DNA of 64,000 bases from Nitrosopumilus sp. (GCA_965218785.1 OZ244650.1:256001-320000); one strand, 5' to 3'. Positions 1,828 through 41,006 are shown, counted from the stretch's first letter. Notes: generated from the letters alone by a model not told the origin. Program-made: numbers and translations.

Positions 1828-1858
1828 TTATAATAATGCTGTAAAAGAAAATTTAGTG

Positions 1859-4800
1859 ATGCCAAAAAAAGTGGCGATTCTCTTTTTCATGTTTCTTTTA
1901 GCTGTCACACTGACAAATTCCTATGCACAGCAGCAGCAGCAACTACAGCTTCCAGAAGACATCACTTTGGAGACGGCAGGCAGCAGCATCCCAAAACAGA
2001 TCGAGTTTGCCTCTGATATAATCAAAGTTGACCCGGACTTTTTCTCTGAGAACAGCTTTAAGCGATATCTGGTCTTTGGTACGGCCACTCAAAACGCCGG
2101 CCTGCCAGATGACAGATCCCTGTATGGTGTCAACTCTGATGGCGGATTTTTTTATGTGGCCGTACTTTCAGAGGGCGGTGCATCAGCTCTGGTCTCTGAG
2201 GGTTACAACGTAATTGAGGATTTCCGGCTGGATTTTCATTCTGCTGCAGGTGATCCCAGTGATGCGTCTCGAATTGCCCAGATAACACGCTCAGATACCG
2301 CACGGGAAAATTACGGCGTGACAGGAAACGGCACGAGGATTGCAATTGTAGATACGGGCGTTGATTTTTCCAATCCCGATATTCAGCACTCCCTTGCCCG
2401 GGATGAAAAAAACCACCCGGTGATGCTTGATCCCGACGGTCAGGGAATCATCCTGACAAACGCGACCTTTTTTGCATTTATTGATGAAAATGAAATCATC
2501 AAAAACTACAGCAAGCCCACCCCGCCTGATATGACCTCACTGGTGTATGTGACAGAGCAGGGGGTTTTTCTTGACGTATCCCAGGGCGGAAAAGGCAGCA
2601 AAATTCCAATTTACAATTCCTTTTTTCCACTGCTGGGCTCTTCTGTAATATTTGATGGGATTCTAGATCACGACATGAAGATCGGCGATAACAACAGGGA
2701 TTACATCAAATCAAAGAGCGGTGTATACCACCTTGGCGTAATTTATCAGGGTGCCACACAGGGGGCACTGGCACAGATACAGGCAGTACCGGTGCTAGTT
2801 GTTGATTCGTTTACTTCGGGGGTTTATGATACCATAATTCCGGATCTTAGCACATCGTGGGAGGATTACACCAGGTTTGATCTAAAGCCGGGTCAGGAAC
2901 CGGAATATGATTTTGACTTTACCGATGAAAAGCCGATTGTGCTGGGAAGCGGAAAGGAGTTTCTTGTGTATGACTCTAATAATGACGGAAAAAACGATTA
3001 CAGTGCCGGAACCTTTGGCGCGCAGGTCCTGGACGTTTACGGGGCAATACGGCAGAACAGGACTGCACACATTGACGGCTCGATACAGGCAGTAAACGGC
3101 ACCCTGCTTCCTGCACTGGATCCGGACGGTGAATTCTTCGGCCTGATGACGGATTTTGCAGGACACGGCACTGCTAGTGCCGCATCCATTGTCTCACGCG
3201 GACATGAAATTTATGACATCTATAACAACACCGGAAGACACACCATTACCGGCGTGGCACCTGATGCAAAGATAGTTCCCGTAAAGGCGTTATGGTTTGG
3301 TGATACCGTTTACGGGTGGCTGTGGTCTGCCGGATTTGACAACGAGGAGCACGACTGGGAGTTTAGCGGAGAGACCAGGGTTGATGTAATCTCCAACAGC
3401 TGGGGCGTGTCCACCTTTCCCACGTTTAATGCGTCTCCTGGCATGGATATTCTCTCGTTGATTCTCAGCGTGCTTGTAACACCGCACTCCCTTGATGATG
3501 ACTATCCCGGAATAACCATGGTCTCTAGTGCGGGAAATTCCGGGCATGGTTATGGGACGATGGGACTGCCAAACGCATCCCCCTATGGAATCTCAGTTGG
3601 TGCCACCACCAATAACGTGTTTGTAGGGTATGGTCCGTTCAAAGAACAGCCAAGATTTGGAAATACCACGTCACATTACAACCACGTAGTTGATTTTTCC
3701 AGCAGGGGTCCTAGTTCCATCGGGGATCCAAAACCCGATTTGATGGGTATTGGGGCGCATGGATTCACACCATCAAACGTCCTCAAAGTGAAGAAGGATT
3801 CAAAAGACGAGTCTTTTTCCCTGTTTGGGGGGACTAGCATGGCAGCGCCGATAGTAGCCGGCAGCATCGCAGTATTGATGGAGGGAATGAAGAAACAATC
3901 ACAGGATACAGACCCGTTTACAATCAAAAATATTCTAATGTCTACTGCGACTGATCTGAAAAATGATCCGTTCACACAGGGTGCCGGTCTAGTTGATGTC
4001 TCCTCGGCACTAGACTACGTGGCGGGAAAAAACGGCTCTTTTATCGTGCATAATGACGCATCATACCGGAACATCAAGAAGGTTTTAGAGCCTGCAATAG
4101 AGTCGGTAAATTCAACTGCGATCGGACTTGGACAGTTTGGGCTGCCTTCAAAGCCGCTTCCCATGACTAGCTGGTTTGCAGGACAGCTGCTGCCCGGAGA
4201 GCGCAGTGCTGCGACATTTACCATTGTTAATCCGTCTGAAAAAGAGATCACAGTGGATATAATCCCAAAAAAGGTGTCTTTGATTACAAAGACTGAGTTT
4301 AACGGCAAGACAACCGTACGCCAGCAGGACCCGCTGATTGAAAAGCCCCATGCGTATTCCCCCAACTATATCAAGCTCTCAGATGTGCGGCAGCCTGCCA
4401 CTTTAAATGAATTCTTTGATGAGGAGCAGCCAATTCCAGATGATGCGTCGCTGATGGTGCTGAATGTGAATTTTGCATTTGACGTATTTATGAACGAGAC
4501 TTCGGATGTTTATGCCGATGATATTAAAATCTCCTCCCTGTATCTTTATGACTGGATTGACGGCAACAACGATACAAAGATTGCCAGTGACGAGCTCTCC
4601 ATGATAAACAGGGCCGGATCCTGGGGGACTGTTCAGGAACTCAGGGTCACTGATCCGCACGAAAAATTCGAGGGAACACCGCTAGTTGGGGTGTATCCGG
4701 TTCCAACAAGACATTCGTACTGGCTCGGTGATACGAAAATGAACTCTACTTCCATGGATTATACATTGTCTGCAAGTTATTATCACAAGGAAAGATGGCC

Positions 4801-5767
4801 TGTCATCTGGACTGAATCTGGCAGGGTTACCGTGCCGCCAAACGGGGTGAGTGCTGTTGATGTGACGTTGGTTGCGCCCACAGGACTGCAAACGGGAGTA
4901 TACCAGGGATTTCTGAGTTTTGAGGGGGAGCAGCATACCGTAAATGCCCCGGTCTCTTTTGTGATAAAGCAGCTAGTGGATCAGAATGATTCGACTGTAA
5001 TTGTTAAGGGAGTACAAAGTGATGATGTTATGTATGGGAATGGATACATCAAGGGCGCATTTGATATGGTCAATCGGTATATGGCAGGGGATTGGAGGCA
5101 GTATTATTTTGACATACGGGACGAATCAGTCAGTTCTGCAACCATTGAACTTTCATGGCTGACTGATGATACCAACCTGGCAGTCTTTGTAATGGATCCG
5201 TCCGGACAGATTATCCAGACAAACGTCCCATCCGGGGTGTTTGGTCATTTTCTGGGATGGGCCTCACTTGACTGGCTGGGCAATTCAGTCTTTGGGCAGG
5301 GAGGAGGATTCTTTCCCGTAAAGAACAAGGATGATACCTCAACTGCTATTTATGTTCCAATCAATCAGACTGGAACATATACTCTTTTGACGCATTCAAC
5401 ATTGTTTGGGGGAAACTCCACGACAGAGCCAGTCACACTTGCCGCCAAATTTAGCAATATCTTATCTGATGGTGATGTTGTTGTTCCGGATTCAAATGAT
5501 CATGCCTTAAAAGACGGCAGTGATGCCGTCTCTGAGACAGAGACGATTCCAGGGGATTCCGTTGAGGATGTCAATTCTGATCTGTCATTTGATGCCGGAA
5601 TTGTTCTTGGAGTAGTTATTGGGATGGCGGTGGTGATCGGGGTTGTTTTCATATTCATTCTTAGACAGAAACAGACATCTAAAGAATCTACTATCCAAAA
5701 AGTAGTTCACTCCAGAGGGAGTCTTGCTTATAATAAAGAGAATCAAGCAAGATTACTTGGAAATTGA
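1859..5767 (+). CDS. Membrane-anchored S8 (subtilisin-like) serine protease
   Basis: Catalytic motifs IVDTG, GHGT, GGTSMA and oxyanion AGNSG; signal peptide from MPKKVAIL (ATG 1859); C-terminal TM helix. Confidence 0.92.
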   Translation: MPKKVAILFFMFLLAVTLTNSYAQQQQQLQLPEDITLETAGSSIPKQIEFASDIIKVDPDFFSENSFKRYLVFGTATQNAGLPDDRSLYGVNSDGGFFYVAVLSEGGASALVSEGYNVIEDFRLDFHSAAGDPSDASRIAQITRSDTARENYGVTGNGTRIAIVDTGVDFSNPDIQHSLARDEKNHPVMLDPDGQGIILTNATFFAFIDENEIIKNYSKPTPPDMTSLVYVTEQGVFLDVSQGGKGSKIPIYNSFFPLLGSSVIFDGILDHDMKIGDNNRDYIKSKSGVYHLGVIYQGATQGALAQIQAVPVLVVDSFTSGVYDTIIPDLSTSWEDYTRFDLKPGQEPEYDFDFTDEKPIVLGSGKEFLVYDSNNDGKNDYSAGTFGAQVLDVYGAIRQNRTAHIDGSIQAVNGTLLPALDPDGEFFGLMTDFAGHGTASAASIVSRGHEIYDIYNNTGRHTITGVAPDAKIVPVKALWFGDTVYGWLWSAGFDNEEHDWEFSGETRVDVISNSWGVSTFPTFNASPGMDILSLILSVLVTPHSLDDDYPGITMVSSAGNSGHGYGTMGLPNASPYGISVGATTNNVFVGYGPFKEQPRFGNTTSHYNHVVDFSSRGPSSIGDPKPDLMGIGAHGFTPSNVLKVKKDSKDESFSLFGGTSMAAPIVAGSIAVLMEGMKKQSQDTDPFTIKNILMSTATDLKNDPFTQGAGLVDVSSALDYVAGKNGSFIVHNDASYRNIKKVLEPAIESVNSTAIGLGQFGLPSKPLPMTSWFAGQLLPGERSAATFTIVNPSEKEITVDIIPKKVSLITKTEFNGKTTVRQQDPLIEKPHAYSPNYIKLSDVRQPATLNEFFDEEQPIPDDASLMVLNVNFAFDVFMNETSDVYADDIKISSLYLYDWIDGNNDTKIASDELSMINRAGSWGTVQELRVTDPHEKFEGTPLVGVYPVPTRHSYWLGDTKMNSTSMDYTLSASYYHKERWPVIWTESGRVTVPPNGVSAVDVTLVAPTGLQTGVYQGFLSFEGEQHTVNAPVSFVIKQLVDQNDSTVIVKGVQSDDVMYGNGYIKGAFDMVNRYMAGDWRQYYFDIRDESVSSATIELSWLTDDTNLAVFVMDPSGQIIQTNVPSGVFGHFLGWASLDWLGNSVFGQGGGFFPVKNKDDTSTAIYVPINQTGTYTLLTHSTLFGGNSTTEPVTLAAKFSNILSDGDVVVPDSNDHALKDGSDAVSETETIPGDSVEDVNSDLSFDAGIVLGVVIGMAVVIGVVFIFILRQKQTSKESTIQKVVHSRGSLAYNKENQARLLGN

Positions 5768-6394
5768 GGTAGGAATCAAAAGTTTCTCAAATTCCCAAAT
5801 TGGACAATTAGTATCACATTCCTGACCGCATACAGCCATCATTTTTACTTCATCTTTGAGATTGTTTACTGGAATGGACATGATGTTATCAGTTATTTCA
5901 TATTTTGTCATTCCTTTGGATGAGAGATTCTTTTGTTCCAAATATCGTTTTAGACATTTCTTTGGTAAAGAATCAACAGAATGACGAGAAGGTTCGTTGC
6001 TTATAGTTTGAGGATATTTCATGATTGTAACTTTATCTTTAATAAAAATCCAACCAGCTATTGGAGTAGGCAATTTTCGTGGTTTAAAATCAGTGGCAAT
6101 ATATGCAAAATCTACATAATCTTTGATATTTGAAATTTGTTTTTTTGCTCTTTTCAAATTATCATGAGACGATTTCACTTCAACGATTCCCACTTTATTT
6201 TCTTTAATTAATAACAAATCAATATCAGAAATAATATTGCCCCATGAAATATTCAGTCGTGCATGAGGAACAGCTTGAAAGCCTTGATTTTGAAAAAAAA
6301 GTGCTAATTTTTCTATAATTGGGGCTTCATACTTGCCGATTTTTTTACTTGATTTTAAGATATTTCGTTTTATCACGCTGTGAATTTCTCCCAA
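5753..6394 (-). CDS. PD-(D/E)XK nuclease-like protein (Sce7726/MmcB-like)
   Basis: SDIDLL...VEVKS..DNLKRAKKQI..YVDFAYI motif; C-terminal CGQECDTNC; AT-rich; TTG start. Confidence 0.6.
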   Translation of the reverse strand: MGEIHSVIKRNILKSSKKIGKYEAPIIEKLALFFQNQGFQAVPHARLNISWGNIISDIDLLLIKENKVGIVEVKSSHDNLKRAKKQISNIKDYVDFAYIATDFKPRKLPTPIAGWIFIKDKVTIMKYPQTISNEPSRHSVDSLPKKCLKRYLEQKNLSSKGMTKYEITDNIMSIPVNNLKDEVKMMAVCGQECDTNCPIWEFEKLLIPTSISK

Positions 6395-6663
6395 TTTTCA
6401 ATTATTTCTTGAGTTAAAGACTTGGATGATTTTCTATCTGACTTTCCTGTAAGTAAAATTGCACAATCAAAGCGTACAGAAATATTTCTTTTATCTTCAG
6501 TAAGGGGAATAAAGTACTCATTTTCTTATCTTTTACTTCAAAATATGTTTCAGGTGTTGGGATTACGGCGTATTTTACGTCTCATTTCCAATACCCGTAA
6601 AACTTTACACTAAAACAATAATATTTTACTAATTAAATGATAACTATACGAGTGAGCTAAATT

Positions 6664-7956
6664 ATGCAATATGATCTTAATAGAATATATGTTGAAAATT
6701 TTAAAAGTTTAAAAAATTTTGATATTGAATTTAATAAATTTAATGTTCTAATTGGATCTAATGGTTCAGGTAAAACAAACGTACTTGAATTATTTAAATT
6801 AATTAATTCCTGTATTAATCCTACACAAACTCCTGCTTATCCTTTTGCGCATTGGTGGGGATTTAATAATTTAGTATGGTCAGGTGATGAGCAATTACCA
6901 ATTTTATTCCGTATTGATTATAAAATAGATGAACAAAATATTAGTTATGAGACATTAATATCCGGTTTGCATGGAAAGTTATCATTTGTTGAGGAAAAGC
7001 TTTTCATTAAAGATTATGTCTCACTAAAGCGTGACTATGAGAATGTTGTGTACAAATTTGCATCTAGCTTTATAACTAAAAATCAATCAACAATAAAGGA
7101 AATTGTTTCTAGGTATCATGGTGATCTTAAATCTTATGAGAGTTTTACCTTAGATGCACCTAATGATACATCTATTTTAAAATCGATTAAAAATTGGTCT
7201 GCAGAACGTATTTTTCATTCAGAATTAACTACTATTATCCTTCCGCGTTTAATTGATGATAAATATGACCCCATTATATTTTTCTCCCCCATAATTCATT
7301 CTTCTGATAAACGTATGAAACCATTATACACTGCCGCCGTTGATTTTCTTACTGAGGGTAGTCGTATTATTTTACTTGGACAAATAAATTATAGTATATT
7401 ACGTCAACCCACACCTACAAATCAATCACGTGAATTACAAGAAGATGGTAGTGGATTAATTAATCTTTTATTTCATTGGTATATCAAAAATAAAAAATTA
7501 CCTGAGCGTTTTGAACTAGCACTTGAACAATTATTTCCTAAATGGCAGATCACTTTTACTGTGACTGATGATGGTAGAATTTTACTTAGAGTTCTAGATG
7601 GTAATATGACATTATCTCCGCCTTCCATTCCAGATGGTTTCTACAAATTATTTGTAATACTGGCAGCTATTGAATTAAATCCCAGAATATTACTAATTGA
7701 CGAAATGGAAACATCATTACATGCTGAAATTATTGAATTTATTGTAGATTCTCTCAAAACATGTGATGCAAATGTAATTGTCACTACTCACTCACCTACG
7801 GTTATAGATATTATTGATTTGGAAGATATTATCATACTTGAAAAAGATGGATATGAAACGACATCTCGCAGACTCGATAATGTAGACGAATTAAAACATA
7901 AATTAACAGAAAAAGACATTACAGTTAGTGACACATGGTTATATGGTGAATTATGA
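6664..7956 (+). CDS. ABC-type ATPase (AAA_21/AAA_15-like, often defence-associated)
   Basis: ENFKS, Walker A GSNGSGKT, signature-like SIPDG, Walker B LLIDEMETSLH, H-loop TTHSP, C-terminal WLYGEL; AT-rich. Confidence 0.85.
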   Translation: MQYDLNRIYVENFKSLKNFDIEFNKFNVLIGSNGSGKTNVLELFKLINSCINPTQTPAYPFAHWWGFNNLVWSGDEQLPILFRIDYKIDEQNISYETLISGLHGKLSFVEEKLFIKDYVSLKRDYENVVYKFASSFITKNQSTIKEIVSRYHGDLKSYESFTLDAPNDTSILKSIKNWSAERIFHSELTTIILPRLIDDKYDPIIFFSPIIHSSDKRMKPLYTAAVDFLTEGSRIILLGQINYSILRQPTPTNQSRELQEDGSGLINLLFHWYIKNKKLPERFELALEQLFPKWQITFTVTDDGRILLRVLDGNMTLSPPSIPDGFYKLFVILAAIELNPRILLIDEMETSLHAEIIEFIVDSLKTCDANVIVTTHSPTVIDIIDLEDIIILEKDGYETTSRRLDNVDELKHKLTEKDITVSDTWLYGEL

Positions 7957-8062
7957 GATTTTATTTTATTGAGAGGATTATCATCAGGGATTGTTTGTCT
8001 GTGAAATGATAACCAGAACTTGTTTCATCTTTGGATAAAACAGGACAAATAATTGAACAAGG

Positions 8063-8094: not shown

Positions 8095-8700
8095 ATGTCA
8101 GAACTTGGGACAAAAAAGTCTGGCGGGTTATCCAGAAGAGACTTTTTAAAGTTGATAGGAGCCGCAGGCACGGGATTAGCATTTGCTCCATTTGTCCCGT
8201 TTGGTAATTTCATGCCAAATCCAAGCCAGGCATCCCTTGAAAGAGTTCCAGTAATCTTACCTGATAATACCCACGCTAATATGAACACTTTTCCAATCAA
8301 TCATGCCGAAGTGATTACATATCCATCTACTGGTGATGCCGCACTTGATGCAGAGGCGTTTCGTAAATGGCAGTTCATCAGACTGCCTGAAGAGCTGGGC
8401 GGTGCAAAAAACGACATAACATCTATTCGAGCTTACAGCATGATCTGCCTCCATCTTTGGTGTCTGTGGAAATACTGGCCCGATGATGGAAGAAAGAGAG
8501 GCGAATGTCCATGTCATGGCAGCATATATGATCCATTGACCGGAAAGGCATTTCAGGGACCCGCATCGGTGCAAGCCGCACCGTCAGACACGTTACCTAG
8601 ATTGGATTTGGACGTTGATTCAGAAGGATTTGTATTTATCCTGCCGCCGAAATTTAATACAAATGATAATGGAGTAATTGGATATGGCCGTTTCGCTTGA
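8095..8700 (+). CDS. petC: Rieske 2Fe-2S protein, complex III
   Basis: Tat signal SRRDFLK; CLHLWC and CPCHGS Rieske boxes. Confidence 0.95.
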   Translation: MSELGTKKSGGLSRRDFLKLIGAAGTGLAFAPFVPFGNFMPNPSQASLERVPVILPDNTHANMNTFPINHAEVITYPSTGDAALDAEAFRKWQFIRLPEELGGAKNDITSIRAYSMICLHLWCLWKYWPDDGRKRGECPCHGSIYDPLTGKAFQGPASVQAAPSDTLPRLDLDVDSEGFVFILPPKFNTNDNGVIGYGRFA

Positions 8701-10282
8701 AAGAAGAAGAACCGGACTGGTAGCATTCCTTTACTGGCTTTGGGATGGAGTAGACAGGACGATATTTACTGCAATCAAATTTTCATTCCCTGCAAGATTT
8801 GTTAGTCCGTTTGGATTCCTGGGAATGCTTACATTTGTTGTATTTATCATTCTTGGGGTCTCAGGTGCACTGCTCATGTTTTACTATCAGCCGATACTAG
8901 ATAGGGCGTGGGACAGCGTCCAATTCATCAATGACGACGTTCCATTTGGCTTTCACATAAGAAACATCCACTACCACGGTTCCAACGCAATGGTGCTTCT
9001 GGCAGTTCTTCACATGTATTACCAGTACTTTAGCGGAAGATACAAAATTAGAAACGAGGTTTTGTGGATGACGGGAGTCATTCTGGGAGTCGTTACAATT
9101 CTTGAGGCATTTACAGGATATGATGTTATATTTAGCGAAAGAGCGGAACTTGCAATCAGTATTGCCGCATCGCTTACCACGTCGATTCCCGTGGTCGGAC
9201 CGACGATTCGTGATGCGGCGCTTGGCAGCGGATTTTCAGACTTTGTATTGAGGTTCTATGCACAACATGTGTTCCTGCTGCCTATCGTGATGCTCGGATT
9301 GATGGCAGTTCACTTTCCAAGATTTCTGGTATTTGATGTGCCCATGGTTATGGCCATTTCAGGTGCCATTCTCATCACCGGAGGAGTATTCCCGATTGAC
9401 CTGGGCTTCAAGTTTGAACCAGACGTGGCGCCGGGTGTGACGGTTCCAGAATGGTATCTTACGGGAATTTATGCATTCATGCGGACCCAGTATGACAAGT
9501 TTGTAACAGGGCTGTTGTGGCCCCTGCTGTTTATTGCCTCGATTCTATTAATTCCGTTCATTGACAGATACAAAAAATTCTCATGGAGGGAAAGACCGAT
9601 AATTACCGCATTTGGCATTACAAGCCTTGCCCAGATTATGGTCACCACGTACTTGGGATTTTATATCTCGCCTGACACGTCGCTTTCACTAGTGGAGCGT
9701 CTGGTAATTGATCCGATATTCTTCTACTCTATAATGATTTTGATGGTACCGCTGGGATTCGGATTTACCTACATGATGATAAAACTTGCAAATGAGGCTG
9801 AAAGAAAATCAAAGCTTGCAAAAAGCACTGGTCCAAAACAGGTCGCAACAATCAAGCTCTCTGAAAAATGGATTAACTGGCTGTTAATTGCCCTGCTGGC
9901 ATTCCAGGTGTTCTTAAATATTGCAGCGTATAATGCGGCCCTGACTGGAATGAAGAATGTCTCGTTGTTCTTTGTCGGATTAATCCTGCTGGTATTTGCG
10001 GCATTCTTCCATCTTTACAGATATGCTCTAAGTGAGCAAAAGAATGCACCTCCACCACCACCACCACCATCATCTGTTTCTGCATCCGAAGAAAAACCAA
10101 AGCTGGCAGAACCTGCCGCATCTGCTGATTCAGGCAAACTTTCACAAGACGATGCCACACCAAAGGAGAAACCAAAAGAGTTGGCCCAGGTTATCCCACC
10201 AAAAACCCAGGCAGACCCTGGGTTTGGTGCAAATAACAATCCAAATGTCGGTGATAATGATCTTGAGAGGCTGGACAAATGA
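8684..10282 (+). CDS. petB: Cytochrome b/b6, complex III
   Basis: IRNIHYHGSN..LHM haem ligands, PEWY motif, many TM helices, Pro-rich tail; overlaps the Rieske stop. Confidence 0.95.
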   Translation: MAVSLERRRTGLVAFLYWLWDGVDRTIFTAIKFSFPARFVSPFGFLGMLTFVVFIILGVSGALLMFYYQPILDRAWDSVQFINDDVPFGFHIRNIHYHGSNAMVLLAVLHMYYQYFSGRYKIRNEVLWMTGVILGVVTILEAFTGYDVIFSERAELAISIAASLTTSIPVVGPTIRDAALGSGFSDFVLRFYAQHVFLLPIVMLGLMAVHFPRFLVFDVPMVMAISGAILITGGVFPIDLGFKFEPDVAPGVTVPEWYLTGIYAFMRTQYDKFVTGLLWPLLFIASILLIPFIDRYKKFSWRERPIITAFGITSLAQIMVTTYLGFYISPDTSLSLVERLVIDPIFFYSIMILMVPLGFGFTYMMIKLANEAERKSKLAKSTGPKQVATIKLSEKWINWLLIALLAFQVFLNIAAYNAALTGMKNVSLFFVGLILLVFAAFFHLYRYALSEQKNAPPPPPPPSSVSASEEKPKLAEPAASADSGKLSQDDATPKEKPKELAQVIPPKTQADPGFGANNNPNVGDNDLERLDK

Positions 10283-10743
10283 GTATGCCTACATCAAGTC
10301 ATGCATATGGTATAGGAGTTCTCGCACTAATAGTTGGCATGTCTGCCGTACTGGTGTTTTACACCTCGTTTTATCTTCCCGAATCACTGGCAAAACCATT
10401 CGTGCCAGAATCCATCTTGAATCCTAAATCAGAATTAATCATTGAAATTGTTCCAGGTGCGGTGACTGAGGGAAATGATAGCTATGTTCCAAACTCCCCG
10501 AAGGCGATATTGGAAGATACCAACAAGGTAGTCTGGAAGAATAATGATGATACTGCCCATACTGTAACCCCGAATAAACCACATTCTGATAGTTATAGCG
10601 GCGAATTTGGTACCACCAGCGTTCTTAAACCAGGTGATACCTATGAATTTCTGTTTACCGTACCTCAGGAGTTTGGATACCACTGCACCCCACATCCATG
10701 GATGAAAGGTTCAATTATTGTTGAGAAAGGCAGGTTTCACTAG
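10279..10743 (+). CDS. Membrane-anchored blue-copper (plastocyanin-like) protein, proposed cytochrome c1 substitute
   Basis: N-terminal TM, AHTVT, type-1 copper motif CTPHPWM; ATGA overlap with cytochrome b. Confidence 0.9.
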   Translation: MSMPTSSHAYGIGVLALIVGMSAVLVFYTSFYLPESLAKPFVPESILNPKSELIIEIVPGAVTEGNDSYVPNSPKAILEDTNKVVWKNNDDTAHTVTPNKPHSDSYSGEFGTTSVLKPGDTYEFLFTVPQEFGYHCTPHPWMKGSIIVEKGRFH

Positions 10744-11385: not shown

Positions 11386-14300
11386 ATGTTTTTTGTATAT
11401 ATGCGGTTGTTACTTTTGATTTTTGCCGTTGTATTCTCTTTTGTGATTGGCATGGACTATGCCAATGGAGCAAGCAGTGGCACTATCTCCCTTGATAGAT
11501 CAGAATATCCGATACCTTTTGGCACTCCAGATGACTTTGCTACAAATACCAGTAATTCTCCATCTGGCAGATCATTATTTCCGATTCACCCAGAGGGTTT
11601 GGATCTAACTGCCGGTTTTGGTATTGGTGAATATATTAACAACGGTGATCTAACTGTTCACATTAGAGTAAACGATCCGGATTTTAACATCAGCTCGTCT
11701 AGCGAAGATGCCCTTGCCCAAAATACTGTAGACGGCATAGGTCCAGTCAAGATCTCTGTTATCAGAGGCTCTGATGAGGTTGTACTCGGTTATGCCGGTG
11801 GTAGCTCAAGCAGCAACGGCTTGATTGACGTTGATGGTGATGATGCTATTACTGCCAGACAATTTGGTCCAATGACTGAAATTGCACGAGATGAAGGTAT
11901 CTTTGAATTTAGTCTTACAATCAGATTCACTGACGGTCCAGCATCTGATGTCTGTCCAACAAATGTTGTATATGAATCACTTAATGGTCAGAGAGGTGGT
12001 TCAGAATTAAACAGATTTGATGCAGCAAGTACGACAGGTGACTATTGTATCTTACAAGAAGATGTTCTCAAAGTCGAATACACAGATCCTGCTGATGCTT
12101 CCGGTAATACAAACACTGTTACTGATTCTGCAACCTTTGATCTGAAAGAAGGCGTACTGCAAACTGACAAAACCACATACGTTATCGGTTCCTATATGAT
12201 TCTAACCCTCATTGAGTTAGACTTTGATCTTGACAGTAACCGTGCAGAGAAATATGACTTGGACTTGATTGGCTGGGATTCTGATGCAGGAAATACTACC
12301 ATTGGTAACAGTGGTGTTGACGGTGATGATCCTTACCGTGATATATTCGATGCATACACATCAACCTTTAGAGAAACAGGTGAGAGCACCGGTATCTTCC
12401 AGAACACCATCAAAATTCCTTATGCACTAAACAATAACAGCCTTGGAAGAGGTGAAAGCATTATCTTAGAATATCTTGATTGGGGTCCACCCACAGCTGC
12501 TTATGTGGGTTATGATTATAATCCTGCAGATACTACAATCTTTACTTCAGACTTGGGAGCAACCGTAGAACTTGACCGACTAGTTTACACATGGACTGAC
12601 AAAGTCTACATTACCATAGAAGCACAAGATTACAACTTTGACCCCGAACTACTTGACTTGATCGGCGACGGATATGATGCTGATCCAATAAAGATCTCAA
12701 CTCGTAACCACGTTCTTAATAATTACCTGCTCGTTGAAACTGGAATCAATACAGGTCTCTTTACAGGTGAAGTGATCCTTACAGGATTTGCTGAGCATGA
12801 TGCAGACGGTGATGGCACTGATAATGACGCATCAGGTATTACACGCGGTAGGGGTTCAACAGATGGACTGCTAAGTGCTGAAGATGATGACGGACTCACA
12901 GTCTCCTTTGGATTTGCAGAGGATAGATTAGCCGTTGCTAGTGCAATTATCAGGTGGAATACAGGCGAGGTTCAATGGCTTGAATCAAGCCATCCTGCTA
13001 GCGGAACAGGTATTGTAAGAGTAATTGAGCCGGATCTGAATTTGGATCCGGACGCAATCGACACCCTTAATGTCAATGTGCGGTCAGACTCTAGTGTCCG
13101 GGGCATTGATCTTACCGTAACTGAGACTAACTGGTCAACTGCAATCTTCGAAGGCACTGTAAACTTTACAACTACCGGTGAATCATCTGGTACCACACTC
13201 AGAGTCACAGAAGGTGACACTATTACAGCAGAATATGAGGATCACACACTACCTGATCCATACACAACTGCAGACACACTTGGTATTACTGCCACTTCAC
13301 AAATCCAAGGAACAGCACCCACTACTACACAAAATGGGGTAACAGTGGAATTTGACCAACCAGTCTACACATGGACTGACAAAGTCGGCATTACCATAAC
13401 TGCTCCGGATTACAATTTGAATAGTAACGAAATTGATGAAATCGGCGGCAGTGGATCTGCTGCAGGTCAAATACAGATTGAAACCAACATCGCTGCTCTT
13501 AACAACTATAAACTCGTTGAAACCGGAACCAATACCGGCATCTTTTCTGGTAGCGTGTATCTTACAGGATTTGCCCCACATGATGCAGACGGTGATCGTG
13601 ATCCAAACGACGCATCAGGAACTACAAGCGGCAGCGGTCCAACTGACGGACTGCTAGCTGCAGATGGTGATGACGGACTTGAAATGACCTTTACGTTGGC
13701 AGACAATAGACATATCATCGCTAATGCAATCATCAGGTGGAATATCGGCGTGGTTCAATGGCTTGAGTCAGGCTATCCTGTTTACGGATCAGGTGTTATA
13801 AGAGTAATTGACTCTGATATGAACTTGAATCAAAATGCAGTCGACACCTTTGATATCGATGTGTGGTCTGACACTGATGCTGGAGGTATTGACCTTACTG
13901 TAACTGAGACTGATCTGGCAACCGGAATCTTCGAAGGCACTGCAAGATTTACAATTGACGACGATGGCTCTCCCTGGCTCAGAGTCGCAGAAGGTGACAC
14001 CGTCACCGCAGAATACGAGGACAATACACTACCTGAACCATATACAGTTAGCGATGACCTTGACATCACTGCCACCTCAATAATTGAAGTAACGTCATCA
14101 ACCCCAACTGATCCACCTCCACCCATCCTGCCAACACAGATTGGAGTGGTAATTACATCTGAGATAGCCCACGGCACCTCGACTAGTTCTGGTACCATCT
14201 CATATACTGTCACATTCGATGAGGGCATCACAGGATTTGATTCGTCTGATATATCCATCTCAGGAACATCCGATGCGTCAGACGCTGCAAACCTGCAGTG

Positions 14301-16185
14301 GACGGGAACTCAACACACCTTTGATGTAACTGCCACCACTGATGGTACCGTAATCGTATCGATTCCAGCAGCAGCTGTTACAGCTATCGGAAACAAGGAG
14401 AATGCCCAATCCAACGAATATTCAATAACAATTGATATGATGCCGCCCCTGGTCCAGTCTGCAGGGACCATATCTGGTAATGCTGCTGAGATAACCTTCT
14501 CAGAGCCGATTACCGGAACCGCAAGCAATTCTGACTTTACAGTATCAAACAATACAGTCTCTTCTGTCTCTGTTGCAGACAGCATCACAACCCTGACACT
14601 TGACAGTATGATCCTGTACGGTGATAGCATCACCGTATCATACACGGGTAATACCATCATGGATGCGGTAGGCAACATACTTGCCGCATTTACAGATAAA
14701 GTCATTACAAACAACATCGAAGAGCCTACCACGCCGTCTGTAATTATAACATCATCTACTGCAGGCAACGGCGAGACGACCGGTTATGGTACCATCTCAT
14801 ATACTGCCACCTTCAGCGAGGATGTCACAGGATTTGAAACATCTGATATTTACGCGTCCGGTGATGCCGGATTAAACACCCCGGCAGTTTCAAACTTTGC
14901 CGGATCAGGCACATCATATACCTTTGATATACAGGCAACATCTGATGGGAGCATCTCCGTTTTGATTCCACAAAACGCAGCAGACAGTGTTGCATCGATA
15001 GGAAGCACGGTCTCTGATACGTACACGGTAACAGTCAACACAACGGCACCGACTGTCTCATCGGTGAGTGCGACTAGCGGCGGTACCTACAAGGCAGGAG
15101 ATACGGTTCTAATTGCAGTGGAATTTAACCACTCTGTTACAGTCTCCGGTACACCGCATCTCAAGCTAGAGACTGGCGACAGGGATGCAGTAGCAAAATA
15201 TACTTCAGGCTCGCCTGGAACATCACTTGAATTCACACATGTCGTATCTGATGATGAAGAGACAGACGATCTGGATTATGCTGCGACTGACTCGCTTTCA
15301 TTAAACGGAGGTGCCATATCCTCTACTATCAATTCTGCCACATCTGCAATACTCAGTCTTCCACCTACGGGTTCAACACACGCGCTTGCATCCTCTGATA
15401 TCGTAATTGATACCATGGCTCCCCGCATCGTCTCCATTGAGACCACGTCTGACTCTGCAATCAGGATTACGGCATCCGAGCCACTTGCAGGAAACGCCAC
15501 AGCGTCTGATTATACCATATCCGGAATAACAGACAGCACCGTGTCTGATGTTGCCATATCTGGAAACAGCATAAATGTAAGAATAGATGGCAAGATTACA
15601 TCTGGCGATAAAGTCAAGATGTCCTATCTTGGCTCGTCTATAACTGATATTGCAGGAAACGCACTTGGCACGTTAGATGACCGCACAATTACAAACAACA
15701 TGGCATCAGATTCTCCGGCCTCTAATCCAAGGGAACCAGACAATAATGCGGTGAACACTTCAAAACAGTCAGACAACAGTCCGGTGAACACTCCAACACA
15801 GCCAGACAACAATGGTGCGGTGAACACTCCAACACAGCCAGACAACAGTCAGGTAAATACTCCAACACAGCCAGACAACAGTCCGGTAAATACTCCAACA
15901 CAGCCAGACAACAGTCCGGTAAATACTCCAACACAGCCAGATGGCAAATCAGCAGATCCAGAACCAACATGTGGTTCTGGCACATACCTACTTGACGGCA
16001 TATGCGTAGTTGGCAAACCTGATAATGTGAATCCGGATAATGTAGATCCGGCTACACCATCTGCACTGAATCCGGAACCCACATGTGATTCTGGCACGCA
16101 CCTACTTGACGGCATATGCGTAGTTGACAGTCAAGACGACATATTTTCAATTATTATCAACTTTTTTGCAAGAATGTTCGGCTAA
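11386..16185 (+). CDS. S-layer-derived surface protein fused to Ig-like/SwmB-type adhesin repeats (copy 1)
   Basis: Signal peptide; SlaA-like N-terminal ~900 aa with a duplicated YTWTDKV...EYED.TLP module; T/S-rich Ig-like repeats (FSEP...DA.GN; GTYKAGD..GTP.L.LETG); PT linker; two C.SGT.LLDGICVV motifs; amphipathic C-terminus. Confidence 0.85.
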   Translation: MFFVYMRLLLLIFAVVFSFVIGMDYANGASSGTISLDRSEYPIPFGTPDDFATNTSNSPSGRSLFPIHPEGLDLTAGFGIGEYINNGDLTVHIRVNDPDFNISSSSEDALAQNTVDGIGPVKISVIRGSDEVVLGYAGGSSSSNGLIDVDGDDAITARQFGPMTEIARDEGIFEFSLTIRFTDGPASDVCPTNVVYESLNGQRGGSELNRFDAASTTGDYCILQEDVLKVEYTDPADASGNTNTVTDSATFDLKEGVLQTDKTTYVIGSYMILTLIELDFDLDSNRAEKYDLDLIGWDSDAGNTTIGNSGVDGDDPYRDIFDAYTSTFRETGESTGIFQNTIKIPYALNNNSLGRGESIILEYLDWGPPTAAYVGYDYNPADTTIFTSDLGATVELDRLVYTWTDKVYITIEAQDYNFDPELLDLIGDGYDADPIKISTRNHVLNNYLLVETGINTGLFTGEVILTGFAEHDADGDGTDNDASGITRGRGSTDGLLSAEDDDGLTVSFGFAEDRLAVASAIIRWNTGEVQWLESSHPASGTGIVRVIEPDLNLDPDAIDTLNVNVRSDSSVRGIDLTVTETNWSTAIFEGTVNFTTTGESSGTTLRVTEGDTITAEYEDHTLPDPYTTADTLGITATSQIQGTAPTTTQNGVTVEFDQPVYTWTDKVGITITAPDYNLNSNEIDEIGGSGSAAGQIQIETNIAALNNYKLVETGTNTGIFSGSVYLTGFAPHDADGDRDPNDASGTTSGSGPTDGLLAADGDDGLEMTFTLADNRHIIANAIIRWNIGVVQWLESGYPVYGSGVIRVIDSDMNLNQNAVDTFDIDVWSDTDAGGIDLTVTETDLATGIFEGTARFTIDDDGSPWLRVAEGDTVTAEYEDNTLPEPYTVSDDLDITATSIIEVTSSTPTDPPPPILPTQIGVVITSEIAHGTSTSSGTISYTVTFDEGITGFDSSDISISGTSDASDAANLQWTGTQHTFDVTATTDGTVIVSIPAAAVTAIGNKENAQSNEYSITIDMMPPLVQSAGTISGNAAEITFSEPITGTASNSDFTVSNNTVSSVSVADSITTLTLDSMILYGDSITVSYTGNTIMDAVGNILAAFTDKVITNNIEEPTTPSVIITSSTAGNGETTGYGTISYTATFSEDVTGFETSDIYASGDAGLNTPAVSNFAGSGTSYTFDIQATSDGSISVLIPQNAADSVASIGSTVSDTYTVTVNTTAPTVSSVSATSGGTYKAGDTVLIAVEFNHSVTVSGTPHLKLETGDRDAVAKYTSGSPGTSLEFTHVVSDDEETDDLDYAATDSLSLNGGAISSTINSATSAILSLPPTGSTHALASSDIVIDTMAPRIVSIETTSDSAIRITASEPLAGNATASDYTISGITDSTVSDVAISGNSINVRIDGKITSGDKVKMSYLGSSITDIAGNALGTLDDRTITNNMASDSPASNPREPDNNAVNTSKQSDNSPVNTPTQPDNNGAVNTPTQPDNSQVNTPTQPDNSPVNTPTQPDNSPVNTPTQPDGKSADPEPTCGSGTYLLDGICVVGKPDNVNPDNVDPATPSALNPEPTCDSGTHLLDGICVVDSQDDIFSIIINFFARMFG
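15736..15936 (+). repeat. 33-bp coding tandem repeat (PDNSPVNTPTQ x6)
   Basis: Six units read directly; only two units at 20849-20917 in copy 2. Confidence 0.9.
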
Positions 16186-16505: not shown

Positions 16506-19500
16506 ATGTTTTTTGTGTATATGCGGTTGTTACTTTTGACTTTTGCCGTTGTATTCTCTTTTGTGATCGGCATGGACTATGCCAATGGAGCAAACAGTGC
16601 CCGCATCTCCCTTGATAGATCAGAATATCCGATACCTTTTGGCACTCCGGATGACTTTGCTACAAATACCAGTAATTCCCCATCTGGCAGATCATTATTT
16701 CCGATTCACCCAGATGGTTTGGATCTAACTCCGGGTTTTGGTATTAGTGAATATATTAACAACGGTGATCTAACTGTTCACATTAGAGTAAACGATCGAG
16801 ACTTTGATGTCAGCTCATCTGATGAGGACGTCATGGCTCAAGATACAGCCACAGGTGTAGGTCCCGTCAAGATCTCCGTTATCAGAGGCTCTGATGAGGT
16901 TGTACTCGGTTATGCTGGCGGTATCACAAGCAACAACGGCTTGATTGACGTTGATGGTGATGATGCTATTACTGCCAGACAATTTGGTCCAATGACAGAA
17001 ATTGCACGAGATGAAGGTATCTTTGAATTTAATCTTACAATCAGATTCACTGACGGTCCGGCATCTGATGTCTGTCCGACAAATGTTGTATATGAACCAC
17101 TTAATGGTCGGACAGGTGGTTCAGAATTAAACAGATTTGATGCAGCAAGTACGGCAGGTGACTATTGTATATTACGGGGAGATATTCTCAAAGTCGAATA
17201 TACAGATCCTGCTGATGCTTCCGGTAATACAAACACTGTTACTGATTCTGCAACCTTTGATCTGAAAGAAGGCGTACTGCAAACTGACAAAGCCGTATAC
17301 GTTATCGGTTCCGATATGATTCTAACCCTCACTGAGCCAGACTTTGATCTTGACAATGACGGTGCAGAGACATATGATTTGGACTTGATTAAATGGGATT
17401 CTGATACAGCAACTACTACCATAGGCAACAGTGGCGGTCGTGATAATGCAGCAGCATTCGATCCAGAACCAACAGCGTTTAGGGAAACAGGTGACAGCAC
17501 TGGCATCTTCCAGGCTACCATCGAAATTCCTCAAGCACTAGGCAATGACAGCCTTGAAAGGGGCGAACTCATTATCTTAGAATATATTGATTGGAGTCCG
17601 CCCACAGCTGCTTATGTGGGTGGTGATTATAACTCTGTAAGTACTACAATCTTTACTTCAAACCTTGGTGCAACTGTTGAGCTTGACCAACGAATCTACA
17701 CATGGACTGACAAAGTCTACATTACCATAACCGCTCCAGATCACAACTTTCACGATGTTCTAGTTGACCGAATAGGTGACGGGGCAGATAATGATCCAAT
17801 AAAGATCTCAACCCGTAATCACGTTCTTAACTACTATAGACTCGTTGAAACCGGAACCGACACAGGCATCTTTTCTGGTAGCGTATCTCTTACAGGATTT
17901 GCATCACATGATGCAGACGGTGATGGCACTAATAATGATGTATCAGGTATTACACGCGGTGTCGGTCCAACTGATGGACTGCTAAGTGCTGAAGATGATG
18001 ACGGACTCACAGTCTCCTTTGAATTCGCAGAGAATGTATTAGCCGTTGCTAGTGCACTCATCAGGTGGAATACAGGCGAGGTTCAATGGCTTGAGTCAAG
18101 CCATCATGCTAGCGGAACAGGTGTTGTAAGAGTAACCGAATCGGATCTGAATTTGGATCCGGATGCAATCGACACCCTTAATGTCAATGTGCGGTCAGAC
18201 TCTAGTGTCCGTGGCATTGATCTTACCGTAACTGAGACTGATCAGGCGACCGGAATCTTCGAAGGCACTGTAAACTTTACAACTACCGGTGAATCATCTG
18301 GTACCACACTCAGAGTCACAGAAGGTGACACTATTACAGCAGAATATGAGGATCACACACTACCTGATCCATACACAACTGCAGACACACTTGGTATTAC
18401 TGCCACTTCACAAATCCAAGGAACTGCAACCACTACTATACAAAATGGGGTAACAGTGGAATTTGACCAGCCAGTCTACACGTGGACTGACAAAGTCGGC
18501 ATTACCATAACTGCTCCGGATTACAATTTGAATAGTAACCAAATTGATGAAATCGGCGGCGGCGGATCTGCTGCAGGTCAAATACAGATTGAAACCAATA
18601 TCGCTGCTCTTAACAACTATAAACTCGTTGAAACCGGAGCCGATACCGGCATCTTTTCTGGTAGCGTGTCTCTTACAGGATTTGCATCACATGATGCAGA
18701 CGGTGATGGCACTGGGGATGATGCATCAGGTATTACACGCGGTGTCGGTCCAACTGATGGACTGCTAAGTGCTGAAGATGATGACGACGGACTTGAAATA
18801 ACCTTCACATTGGCAGAAAATAGAAATATCACCGCTAATGCAATCATCAGGTGGAATATCGGCGTGGTTCAATGGCTTGAGTCAGGCTATCCTGTTTACG
18901 GATCAGGTGTTATAAGAGTAATTGACTCTGATATGAACTTGAATCAAAATGCAGTCGACACCTTTAATGTCGTTGTGTGGTCTGACACTGATGCTGGAGG
19001 TATTGACCTTACTGTAACTGAGACTGATCTGGCAACCGGAATCTTCGAAGGCACTGCAAGATTTACAATTGACGACGATGGCTCTCCCTGGCTCAGAGTC
19101 GCAGAAGGTGACACCGTCACCGCAGAATACAAGGATCATACATTACCTGTTCCATATACAGTTGGAGATGAACTTGACATCCATGCCACCACAATAATTG
19201 AAGAAACGTCATCAACTCCAACTGATTCTTCTCCACCGATCCTGCCACACAGATTGGAGTGGTAATTACATCTGACATAGCCCACGGTACCTCGACTAGT
19301 TCTGATACCATCTCATATACTGCCACATTTGATGAGGTCATTACAGGATTTGACTCGTCTGATATATCCATCTCAGGAACATCCGATACGTCAGGCGCTG
19401 CAAACCTGCATTGGACGGGAACCCGACACACCTTTTATGTAACTGCCACCAGTGATGGTACCGTAATCGTATCGATTCCAGCAGCAGCTGTCACAACTGC

Positions 19501-21052
19501 CGGAAACAAGGAGAATGTCCAATCCAACGAATATTCAATAACAATTGACACGATGCCGCCACAGGTCCAGTCGGCGGGGACCATATCTGGTAATGCTACT
19601 AAGATAACCTTCTCAGAGCCGATTACCGGAACTGCAAGCAACTCTGACTTTACAGTATCAAACAATACAATCTCTTCTGTCTCTGTTGCAGACAGCATCG
19701 CAACCCTGACACTTGGCAGTACGATTCTATATGGTGATAGCATCACCGTATCGTACACGGGTAATACCATCATGGATGCAACAGGCAACATACTTGCCGC
19801 ATTTACAGATAAAGTGATCACAAACAACATCGAAGAGTCTATCACGCCGTCTGTAATTATAACGTCGTCTACTGCAGGTAACGGCGAGACGACCGGTTAT
19901 GGTATCATCTCATATACTGCCACCTTCAGCGAGGATGTCACAGGATTTGAAACATCTGATATTTCCGCGTCCGGTGATGCCGGATTAAACACCCCGGCAG
20001 TTTCAAACTTTGCCGGATCAGGCACATCATATACCTTTGATATACAGGCAACATCTGATGGGACCATCTCCGTTTTGATTCCACAAAACGCAGCAGACAG
20101 TGTTGCATCGATAGGAAGCACGGTCTCTGATACGTACACGGTAACAGTCAGCACAACGGCACCGACTGTCTCATCGGTGAGTGCGACTAGCGGCGGTATC
20201 TACAAGGCAGGAGATACGGTTCTAATTGCAGTGGAATTTAGCCACTCTGTTACCGTCTCTGGTACACCGCATCTCAAGCTAGAGACTGGCGACAGGGATG
20301 CAGTAGCAAAATATACTTCAGGCTCGCCTGGAACATCACTTGAATTCACACATGTCGTATCTGATGAGGAAGAGACAGACGATCTGGATTATGCTGCGAC
20401 TGACTCGCTTTCATTAAACGGAGGTGCCATATCCTCTACTATCAATTCTGCCACATCTGCAATACTCAGCCTTCCACCTACGGGTTCAGCACACGCGCTT
20501 GCATCCTCTGATATCGTAATTGATACCGTTGCCCCACGTATCGTCTCCATTGAGACCACGTCTGACTCTGCAATCAGGATTACGGCATCCGAGCCACTTG
20601 CAGGAAACGCTACAGCGTCTGATTATACCATATCCGGAATAACAGACAGCACCGTGTCTGATGTTGCCATATCTGGAAACAGCATAAATGTAAGAATAGA
20701 TGGCGAGATTACATCTGGCGATAAAGTCAAGATGTCCTATCTTGGCTCGTCTATAACTGATATTGCAGGAAACGCACTTGGCACGTTAGATGACCGCACA
20801 ATTACAAACAACATGGCATCGGATTCTCCGGTCTCTAATCCAAGGGAGTCCGACAACAGTCAGGTGAACACTCCAACACAACCAGACAACAACAATGCGG
20901 TGAACACTCCAACACAGCCAGACGACAAATCAGCAGATCCGGAACCAATATGTGATTCTGGCACGCACCTACTTGACGGCATATGCGTAGTTGACAGTCA
21001 AGACGATATATTTTCAATTATTATCAACTTGTTTGCAGGATTATTTAGCTGA
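16506..21052 (+). pseudogene. S-layer/adhesin chimera copy 2, split by a 1-bp deletion near 19247 (ORFs 16506-19265 and 19259-21052)
   Basis: Copy 1 reads ctgccaacacagattggagtg and copy 2 reads ctgccacacagattggagtg. Both halves otherwise align with copy 1 without stops. Confidence 0.8.
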
Positions 21053-37504: not shown

Positions 37505-37516
37505 CAGTATCTCAAA

Positions 37517-40918: not shown

Positions 40919-41006
40919 ACCAACTTTTAATGATTTTTAGTTTGATTAAAAGAAACTATTTAGCGTGAGACTTAATAAATACTTGATAATAGCGGAGTCA
41001 GGAATA

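Follow-up and report, generated by a model that had tools for sequence, protein, structure and literature searches.

A mosaic S-layer paralog in Nitrosopumilus sp. that joins membrane-facing S-layer domains to the end cassette of giant surface proteins, and its possible role as an accessory tether

The window analysed in this study is a stretch of 64,000 nucleotides from Nitrosopumilus sp. (GCA_965218785.1, OZ244650.1:256001-320000; G000:C1:256001-320000 in our numbering), whose genome has a size of 1.99 Mb and a GC content of 40.6%. Positions are counted from the first letter of the window. On the plus strand, at 11386..16185, lies a single open reading frame (ORF) of 1599 residues without internal stop codons. 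It encodes a mosaic paralog of the surface-layer (S-layer) protein (P0001), called copy 1 below, and is followed by a tandem copy 2 on the same strand. Judged from its sequence, copy 1 is a true mosaic, in which an S-layer-derived part is joined to adhesin-type immunoglobulin-like (Ig-like) repeats. A chimeric make-up of this kind had been proposed in a sequence-only reading of the same DNA, and it was confirmed here.

Residues 1-28 (11386..11469) form a predicted Sec signal peptide, read by eye, with a hydrophobic core and the end ...YANG/ASSG. The orthologue in a sister species (genome G151) has ...GSANA/ASSG at this position, and from this site we infer the mature N-terminus of copy 1, equivalent to NmSLP residue ~1011. 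Residues 29-389 (11470..12552; Asp 11.4%, Lys 1.7%) are homologous to residues ~1011-1354 of the S-layer protein NmSLP, which by our estimate correspond to its domains D6-D7. Residues 390-645 (12553..13320) form a first D8-D9-like unit by homology to NmSLP ~1355-1619, with domain limits taken from passages of PMC11153153, and residues 646-900 (13321..14085) form a second unit, recognised as an internal duplication by its identity to the first. A Pro/Thr hinge at residues 901-920 (14086..14145) was read from the sequence as the seam between the S-layer-derived part and the C-terminal cassette, and the GC content at third codon positions (GC3) changes from 0.338 to 0.412 across it. The cassette begins with five Ig-like beta-sandwich domains at residues 921-1445 (14146..15720), supported by AlphaFold2, Foldseek and Pfam. 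A Pro/Thr/Asn-rich linker with the 11-residue unit PDNSPVNTPTQ follows at residues 1446-1524 (15721..15957) and is unstructured in the model. Two Cys-bracketed hairpins (motif EPTCxSGTxLLDGICVV; motif and model) occupy residues 1525-1583 (15958..16134), and an acidic pair with a predicted amphipathic C-terminal helix, DDIFSIIINFFARMFG, ends the protein at residues 1584-1599 (16135..16182; hydrophobic moment and low-confidence model). The folded segments are all acidic (Asp 8-12%, Lys plus Arg 2.5-5.3% each).

The origin of the N-terminal part was examined by homology search. Residues 27-645 of copy 1 matched residues 1009-1619 of NmSLP (8c8k_A) with an E-value of 2.8e-224 in phmmer and an identity of ~61% in BLASTP. 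NmSLP was the sole match when all PDB chain sequences (177,635 distinct sequences) were searched with phmmer at E<=1. The identity of residues 29-645 to the genome's own main S-layer protein was 66%, and the named homologues of the S-layer part belong to Nitrosopumilus and Nitrosarchaeum. NmSLP residues 1-1008 and 1620-1734 had no significant match in copy 1 by phmmer or BLASTP. According to the passages of PMC11153153, NmSLP consists of ten Ig-like domains, of which D1-D8 cover residues 37-1499 and D9 ends at 1616; the N-terminus lies at the hexamer centre, D9 is the membrane-proximal base of the lattice, and D10 is flexible in the pseudoperiplasm. By these alignments, copy 1 has neither the outer, pore-forming D1-D5 nor the final domain D10, and about D6-D9 are kept; on homology, its N-terminal 900 residues come from the membrane-proximal part of an NmSLP-type S-layer protein. 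The three S-layer-derived segments (Asp 10.9-12.2%, Lys 0.8-1.7%, Arg 2.4-3.9%) are acidic like NmSLP, for which PMC11153153 gives Asp 10.9%, Lys 1.7% and Arg 2.2%.

The N-terminal part had previously been called SlaA-like, with the repeats standing in place of the SlaA C-terminal domain. Neither statement could be maintained. No SlaA chain was found in the PDB at E<=1, and no SlaA model of NCBIfam or Pfam matched copy 1; the match is to the membrane-facing part of NmSLP. Compared with NmSLP, copy 1 lacks the first 1008 residues and D10, and the cassette stands after the duplicated D8-D9-like unit. NCBIfam returned a local match of the S-layer-derived part to the anammox S-layer glycoprotein family (39.8 bits, far below the cut-off of 1400), and its SlaB models did not match copy 1. 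The internal duplication of ~260 residues was borne out, with residues 390-645 and 646-900 sharing 59% identity over 251 residues (273 bits; shuffle maximum 21 bits, n=200).

A FastTree phylogeny of the D6-D9 region (117 rows) placed the three chimera copies, namely copy 1, copy 2 and the orthologue of the sister species, in one clade with a support of 100. The sister group of this clade (99) consisted of the main S-layer protein of the source genome and P0015, and the clade lay inside a 39-row clade with NmSLP (97). Among the rows compared, the nearest relative of the S-layer-derived part is, by this tree, the genome's own main S-layer protein. An IQ-TREE quick tree was built from 42 D8-D9 units. 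Those of the chimeras, six in number, formed one clade (98), which splits into first units (97) and second units (100), and copy 1 and copy 2 were paired in each (83 and 99). By this topology, the internal duplication predates the split of the two species, and the tandem gene duplication is younger. The unit tree also showed that the D8-D9 unit was duplicated independently in P0004, P0005, P0006, P0007, P0086 and P0241.

The main S-layer gene itself (G000:C1:251520-256742, 1740 residues, full NmSLP architecture) ends at position 742, so that 2-742 of it lie in the window. The main S-layer proteins of the two sister species (G151:C1:1581360-1586489 in the second) share only 62% identity, compared with 79% for the chimera; one of the two lineages may have replaced its lattice gene, or its lattice gene may evolve faster. 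The source genome also encodes several partial paralogs of the S-layer protein, which form a family. The match of one is confined to S-layer residues 17-982, and small D8-D10-like and D9-D10-like proteins occur as well (G000:C1:460615-463980, 1121 residues; 484355-485440; 1777831-1778484). The sister species has counterparts of the 17-982 paralog and the D8-D10-like protein, and a small D10-like ORF.

The five Ig-like domains of the rod lie at about residues 921-1010, 1012-1108, 1119-1217, 1223-1341 and 1348-1436. When residues 916-1445 were modelled with AlphaFold2 from a 22-row alignment, the mean predicted local distance difference test score (pLDDT) was 86.4 and five all-beta domains were seen. 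The second and fifth domains are of the SWM_repeat/Big_12 type. Pfam SWM_repeat (PF13753) matched residues 1017-1089 with 31.5 bits in the whole protein and 37.2 bits in the C-terminal half alone (cut-off 27), and Big_12 (PF19078) reached 22.2 and 27.3 bits, respectively (cut-off 27). The Ig-like/SwmB-type repeats announced by the sequence-only reading are thus present, SWM_repeat lying above the Pfam cut-off. Its motif GTYKAGD...GTPHLKLETG...YTSGS was also found, in a single occurrence at residues 1232-1275 of the fourth domain. Foldseek matched the five-domain model to FMG1B, titin, SbsC, SbsB, GhpA and Sap in the PDB, with E-values down to 6e-14. These are generic tandem Ig arrays; the structural comparison supported an Ig array but did not single out a specific family.

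The description of the repeats as bacterial-type was correct at the level of Pfam families, but not for the closest multi-domain relatives. In a collection of 5.8 billion proteins, all 32 organism-named matches to residues 916-1445 were bacterial by our count among the best 120 listed; those listed had 28-34% identity at more than 60% coverage, or 46-50% over about one domain. Of ten clusters looked up among the best rod relatives without an organism name, one could be assigned, to Neomarinimicrobiota, and one cluster holds a member of 4735 residues from a contig of the sister species. Against its own genome, copy 1 gave 156 matches, mostly to repeats within giant ORFs (open frames of 13079, 6504, 5374, 4927, 4313 and 4301 residues). 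The best multi-domain match, to a 13,066-residue ORF, ran colinearly through the five domains and had 41.6% identity over 536 columns. Since this identity exceeds the 28-34% of the bacterial matches, the closest multi-domain relatives of the repeats are the giant ORFs of the same genome. The domain families of the rod are, on these comparisons, common to bacteria, and their immediate source is the organism's own repertoire. GC3 was considered as a sign of foreign origin and rejected as uninformative, the giant ORFs (0.41-0.50) lying within about one standard deviation of the genome ORFs (0.387 ± 0.098).

The Pro/Thr linker, the two Cys motifs and the amphipathic tail noted earlier are all present. 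The linker is encoded by a 33-nucleotide tandem repeat of 6.2 copies at 15736-15941. The Cys motifs are C1529-C1540 and C1567-C1578, and the residues C, G, T, G and C of the hairpin are invariant in 9 of 9 aligned cassettes. The low-confidence model of the C-terminal end (mean pLDDT 57) contains two beta-hairpins (block pLDDT ~74-75) and a helix at residues 1586-1598. The 14-residue tail IFSIIINFFARMFG has a hydrophobic moment of 0.51, which is the 95th percentile of random 14-mers from this proteome. Its motif, hydrophobic-F-(E/S)-x4-(W/F)(F/L)-xx-(L/M)F, occurs in the last 60 residues of 15 of the 6080 genome ORFs and at no other site in the 567,656 residues of genome ORFs. Twelve of the 15 were judged credible, including ORFs of 13066, 5374, 4913, 4311, 4301 and 3564 residues, and three (109, 89 and 61 residues) spurious. 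A regular expression for the tail, run over the retrieved proteins, matched the query only. NCBIfam gave no match to PGF-CTERM or another archaeosortase signal (the tail ends ...FFARMFG), and Pfam and NCBIfam revealed no RTX/type I secretion, type IX secretion or LPXTG signals in copy 1.

The giant ORFs of this genome, at least seven of 3500-13000 residues with the same Ig repeats, mostly end in a Pro/Glu-rich linker and the tail ...IFEQIIRWFQSLFG. They lie at G000:C1:1227890-1267090 (13066 residues), 926715-946187, 1318075-1334199, 950077-964818, 642630-655565, 1460729-1473634 and 841460-852154. On this likeness, the C-terminal 680 residues of copy 1 are the cassette with which the giant surface proteins of this clade end. 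A second S-layer chimera of 908 residues (G000:C1:1610024-1612750) carries S-layer residues 15-481 followed by Big_9, three Cys hairpins and an amphipathic tail. The hairpin-plus-aromatic-tail cassette was found in five further congeners (G018, G075, G145, G157 and G161). A 296-residue protein of the same genome has three hairpins followed by a true transmembrane helix, and in the ~320-residue proteins of three congeners (loci L068-L070) a hairpin is preceded by a Pro/Glu linker and followed by a C-terminal membrane domain. The Cys hairpin motif matched 73 of 151 genus genomes, mostly in open frames of the ~320-residue size. These ~320-residue conserved proteins (loci L067-L070 in G144, G043, G137 and G024, and many genus genomes) have a predicted signal peptide, one Ig-like domain and a (Pro-Glu)n linker, after which come one Cys hairpin (EPTCGAGTELVNGICQV), GGGCLIATAAYGTELAPQVQFLREIRD... 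and a C-terminal membrane helix.

The full-length architecture was found in 2 of 151 genus genomes, the source genome and the sister species. The orthologue of the latter has an open frame of 1616-1618 residues with 79-81% identity at 100% coverage. Among the best 120 of 1284 matches in the protein collection, one other cluster reached 100% query coverage, and this cluster (P0002) is the protein of the sister species; the next-best match covered 57% and was the first ORF of copy 2. Longer proteins were searched as well, without a match that extends across the seam. Residues 916-1599 were matched at E<=1e-10 in 2 of 41 sampled relatives, the source genome counted, and in 16 of the 151 genus genomes (9 of 98 high-quality ones; at most seven candidates scored per genome in this second run). 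The architecture is therefore rare and the repeats are uncommon among relatives, contrary to what would have refuted the sequence-only reading. A DNA pattern for FExxxxWFxSLFG was present in 2 of the 151 genomes (seven sites in the source genome, three in the sister species) and in none of the reversed controls. When a stricter tail pattern was run over 185,579 species genomes, the record of the sister species was the only match, and the window's own genome may be outside that scan. The literature search, judged mainly from search results, found no paper on the truncated S-layer mosaic or this C-terminal tail. Supplementary Table 1 of PMC11153153, which covers S-layer and SlaB homologues, may bear on the paralogs.

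Copy 2 lies at 16506..21052 on the plus strand. In the assembly it is divided into two ORFs, 16506-19265 (919 residues) and 19259-21052 (597 residues), which are 84% and 81% identical to copy 1. It has a shorter linker and one Cys hairpin. The split corresponds to one base missing after 19246 in the assembly. In Logan contigs of runs X1 and X2, which derive from one sample, the sole contig across 19246 has an extra A; over 167 bases the X2 contig is otherwise identical to copy 2. No X3 contig covers 19246, and X1 and X2 possibly represent the source sample, so they are not independent evidence. An assembly error, or a polymorphism or strain difference, is probably the better explanation than a dead gene. 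Copy 2 as a dead pseudogene was rejected on these X1/X2 contigs, which restore the frame.

Between copy 1 and the orthologue, dN/dS, the ratio of nonsynonymous to synonymous substitution rates, was 0.52 overall at a synonymous divergence (dS) of 0.22 in our Nei-Gojobori script. The Ig rod had a value of 0.33 and the linker and tail one of 0.63, and dN/dS stayed below 1 in every segment. The sister species has a single copy in an unrelated neighbourhood, with no synteny to the source genome within 20 kb on either side. Such data could mean that the protein is an evolutionary by-product, that is, a recent recombinant of an S-layer copy and a giant-gene end which drifts to loss and has no specific role. 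Confinement to two sister species, dN/dS of 0.5-0.65 in most parts, the loss of S-layer-invariant residues, the frameshift of one of two copies in the assembly and the missing synteny all agree with this. However, the frames of copy 1 and the orthologue are open at this dS with dN/dS below 1 in every segment, the copy 2 frameshift is missing from contigs of two runs of one sample, and the internal duplication is older than speciation with both units kept. We consider a by-product very unlikely.

In this study, we tentatively regard copy 1 as an accessory protein of the S-layer that is specific to this lineage and that, at sub-stoichiometric amounts, would tether the lattice to the membrane or act as a spacer between them. 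The protein would be exported by the Sec pathway. Its C-terminal helix and hairpins would be held at the outer face of the cytoplasmic membrane, and the linker and five-domain rod would span the pseudoperiplasm. The S-layer-derived module would then sit at the inner lattice face, docked via Ig-to-Ig, cation-bridged contacts as in the main S-layer protein. Such a tether would act beside the SlaB-like anchor, whose gene adjoins that of the main S-layer protein. Three arguments favour this arrangement. Because the cassette comes after a D9-like domain, which faces the membrane in NmSLP, it should point to the membrane. The order of rod, Pro/Thr linker, hairpins and hydrophobic end is that of genus proteins with true membrane anchors. 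The 908-residue mosaic combines S-layer residues 15-481 with the same end. The gene is also intact in the sister species, with the overall dN/dS given above. The sequence-only reading had offered two roles, a component that displays adhesion domains from the lattice or one that is tethered by them. From the polarity of NmSLP and the anchor-like cassette, the second would fit better.

Several results weigh against a tether. Taking 25 full-length S-layer proteins of the genus to define invariant columns, copy 1 kept 133 of 163 in the first part, 128 of 162 in the first unit and 111 of 160 in the second unit (82%, 79% and 69%). Most invariants are thus retained, but 18-21% were changed in the first part and first unit and 31% in the second unit, a loss far above that of any of the 25 proteins. 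The module is therefore probably not constrained like a lattice subunit. The dN/dS of the S-layer-derived parts (0.55-0.65) is high. The tail is short, at 14 residues, with no transmembrane span and no basic cluster, and its model is of low confidence (pLDDT 57). A SlaB-like anchor is already encoded at 847-1827, adjoining the main S-layer gene. Both lattice docking and membrane binding are what we infer for copy 1, and the passages of PMC11082331 do not give the pseudoperiplasm width, so the argument from length carries no number. A complex prediction of main S-layer protein residues 1350-1726 (25-row alignment) with chimera residues 390-900 (4-row alignment) gave a score of 0.00 (mark 0.32, without controls), which carries no weight for or against docking.

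The rod could also face outward. In that case the module would be part of the lattice and the five Ig domains would project from it as an adhesin for surfaces, hosts or biofilm matrix. SWM_repeat and Big_12 are adhesin-typical families, and the giant ORFs of this genome are composed of these repeats too. According to the passages of PMC12448741, in biofilms of S-layer-bearing ammonia-oxidising archaea the induction of large adhesion proteins goes along with that of an alternative S-layer protein. The adhesion proteins have an irregular distribution, and the authors suppose that they sit within the S-layer. Display is also plausible within the genus. In other genus genomes, S-layer proteins of 2845-3611 residues (P0246-P0256) carry, between positions equivalent to S-layer residues ~640 and ~685, a ~1300-residue insert with FN3, Big_9 and He_PIG domains; these proteins may be outward-displaying S-layer variants. 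For copy 1 itself we judge display unlikely. The NmSLP chain described in PMC11153153 exits D9 toward the membrane, and here the repeats come after the D9-like domain. A module without D1-D5 cannot fill a hexamer position, and the order of linker, hairpins and hydrophobic end fits C-terminal anchoring.

A free-standing fibril, which we think less probable still, would keep the tail at the membrane and reach through or beyond the lattice at defects with an acidic, S-layer-like tip. By binding cations, or the S-layers of adjacent cells, this tip would lead to cell-to-cell cohesion. The end cassette is the same as that of the giant ORFs, the whole protein is very acidic, and the independent D8-D9 duplications in other proteins suggest a unit usable outside the lattice. 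On the other hand, the lattice pores of NmSLP measure ~5 angstroms in the passages of PMC11153153, which is too small for Ig domains, and homophilic binding has no support.

Returning to the tether, how the S-layer of ammonia-oxidising archaea is attached to the cell, and how large adhesins fit a lattice with 5-angstrom pores, are open questions; for attachment, the passages of PMC11153153 speculate on D10 and a low-abundance SlaB homologue. Copy 1 would be a concrete candidate for a lattice-membrane link, since it joins membrane-facing S-layer domains to the end cassette of the giants. A broader proposal, possible but rather doubtful, is that the S-layer module is a self-recognising adaptor that plugs proteins into the lattice, and that linker, hairpins and helix form an undescribed archaeal membrane-holding signal. 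If this were true, adaptor and cassette would provide a modular way to mount adhesins or tethers on a lattice whose pores are too small for threading. The cassette occurs on varied surface proteins of the genus, as hairpin plus tail in the five congeners besides the sister species and as hairpin alone in the 73 genomes mentioned above. As an element common to these proteins, the cassette may represent a new class of signal for surface anchoring in the genus.

Other genes of the window are listed here for orientation. The SlaB-like gene (847-1827) follows the main S-layer gene and encodes 326 residues, among them a signal peptide, a stretch resembling a coiled coil and a membrane helix at the C-terminus; its product matched the SlaB model NF040788 of NCBIfam weakly (E 8.3e-8; 31.5 bits, cut-off 700). 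After it, at 1727-5767, comes a subtilase of 1346 residues with a membrane anchor. A low-GC islet at 6001-8000 (29%, with ~44% on either side) contains an ORF for an AAA_21/AbiEii-type ATPase at 6664-7956 and sits between the S-layer locus and complex III genes; the three products of 8095-10743 have Rieske, cytochrome b and plastocyanin-type domains. Along with the named homologues of the S-layer part, these products assign the genome to the ammonia-oxidising archaea. At 35069-43178 lie three tandem genes (811, 1133 and 737 residues) with many thrombospondin type 3 calcium-binding repeats (Pfam TSP_3: E 1e-26, 1.8e-32 and 2.7e-19).

Compared with known systems, copy 1 shares Pfam families with giant bacterial Ig-repeat adhesins and S-layer proteins (SwmB-type SWM_repeat, Big_12/Big_13 and DUF4347), and its fold with SbsC, SbsB and Sap. 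Instead of RTX/type I secretion, type IX secretion or LPXTG signals, it has a predicted N-terminal signal peptide, and its closest multi-domain relatives are archaeal, from the same genome and the sister species. The S-layer glycoprotein csg of Haloferax volcanii has a Thr-rich linker before a C-terminal PGF-CTERM lipid anchor. The order of Ig array, Pro/Thr-rich linker and C-terminal hydrophobic element is therefore the same in both proteins, but copy 1 ends in a predicted 14-residue amphipathic helix without a PGF-CTERM match in NCBIfam. The role proposed for copy 1, a minor lattice-membrane linker, is also that of SlaB-type anchors, such as SlaB of Sulfolobales and the Nitrososphaerota SlaB homologue in the passages of PMC11153153. 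Copy 1 has no SlaB sequence match, coiled coil or transmembrane helix, its last 16 residues being too short for a membrane span, and it would bind the lattice through a copy of the lattice protein. Like copy 1, the long S-layer variants P0246-P0256 combine NmSLP-type domains with adhesin-like Ig/FN3 arrays; they are full S-layer proteins with an insert, whereas copy 1 is a truncated C-terminal part with a C-terminal extension and an anchor-like end. NmSLP (Nmar_1547; PDB 8c8k and related) resembles copy 1 in its acidic Ig-like array and chain polarity. Relative to it, copy 1 lacks residues 1-1008 (hexamer centre and outer canopy) and D10, has D8-D9 doubled and has gained a foreign cassette of 680 residues. 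Nmar_1201, a paralog of NmSLP with 91% identity according to the passages of PMC11153153, is full-length, unlike the truncated mosaic copy 1. By homology and acidity, copy 1 is thus a truncated and extended paralog of the NmSLP family, which departs from that family in its ten-domain architecture.

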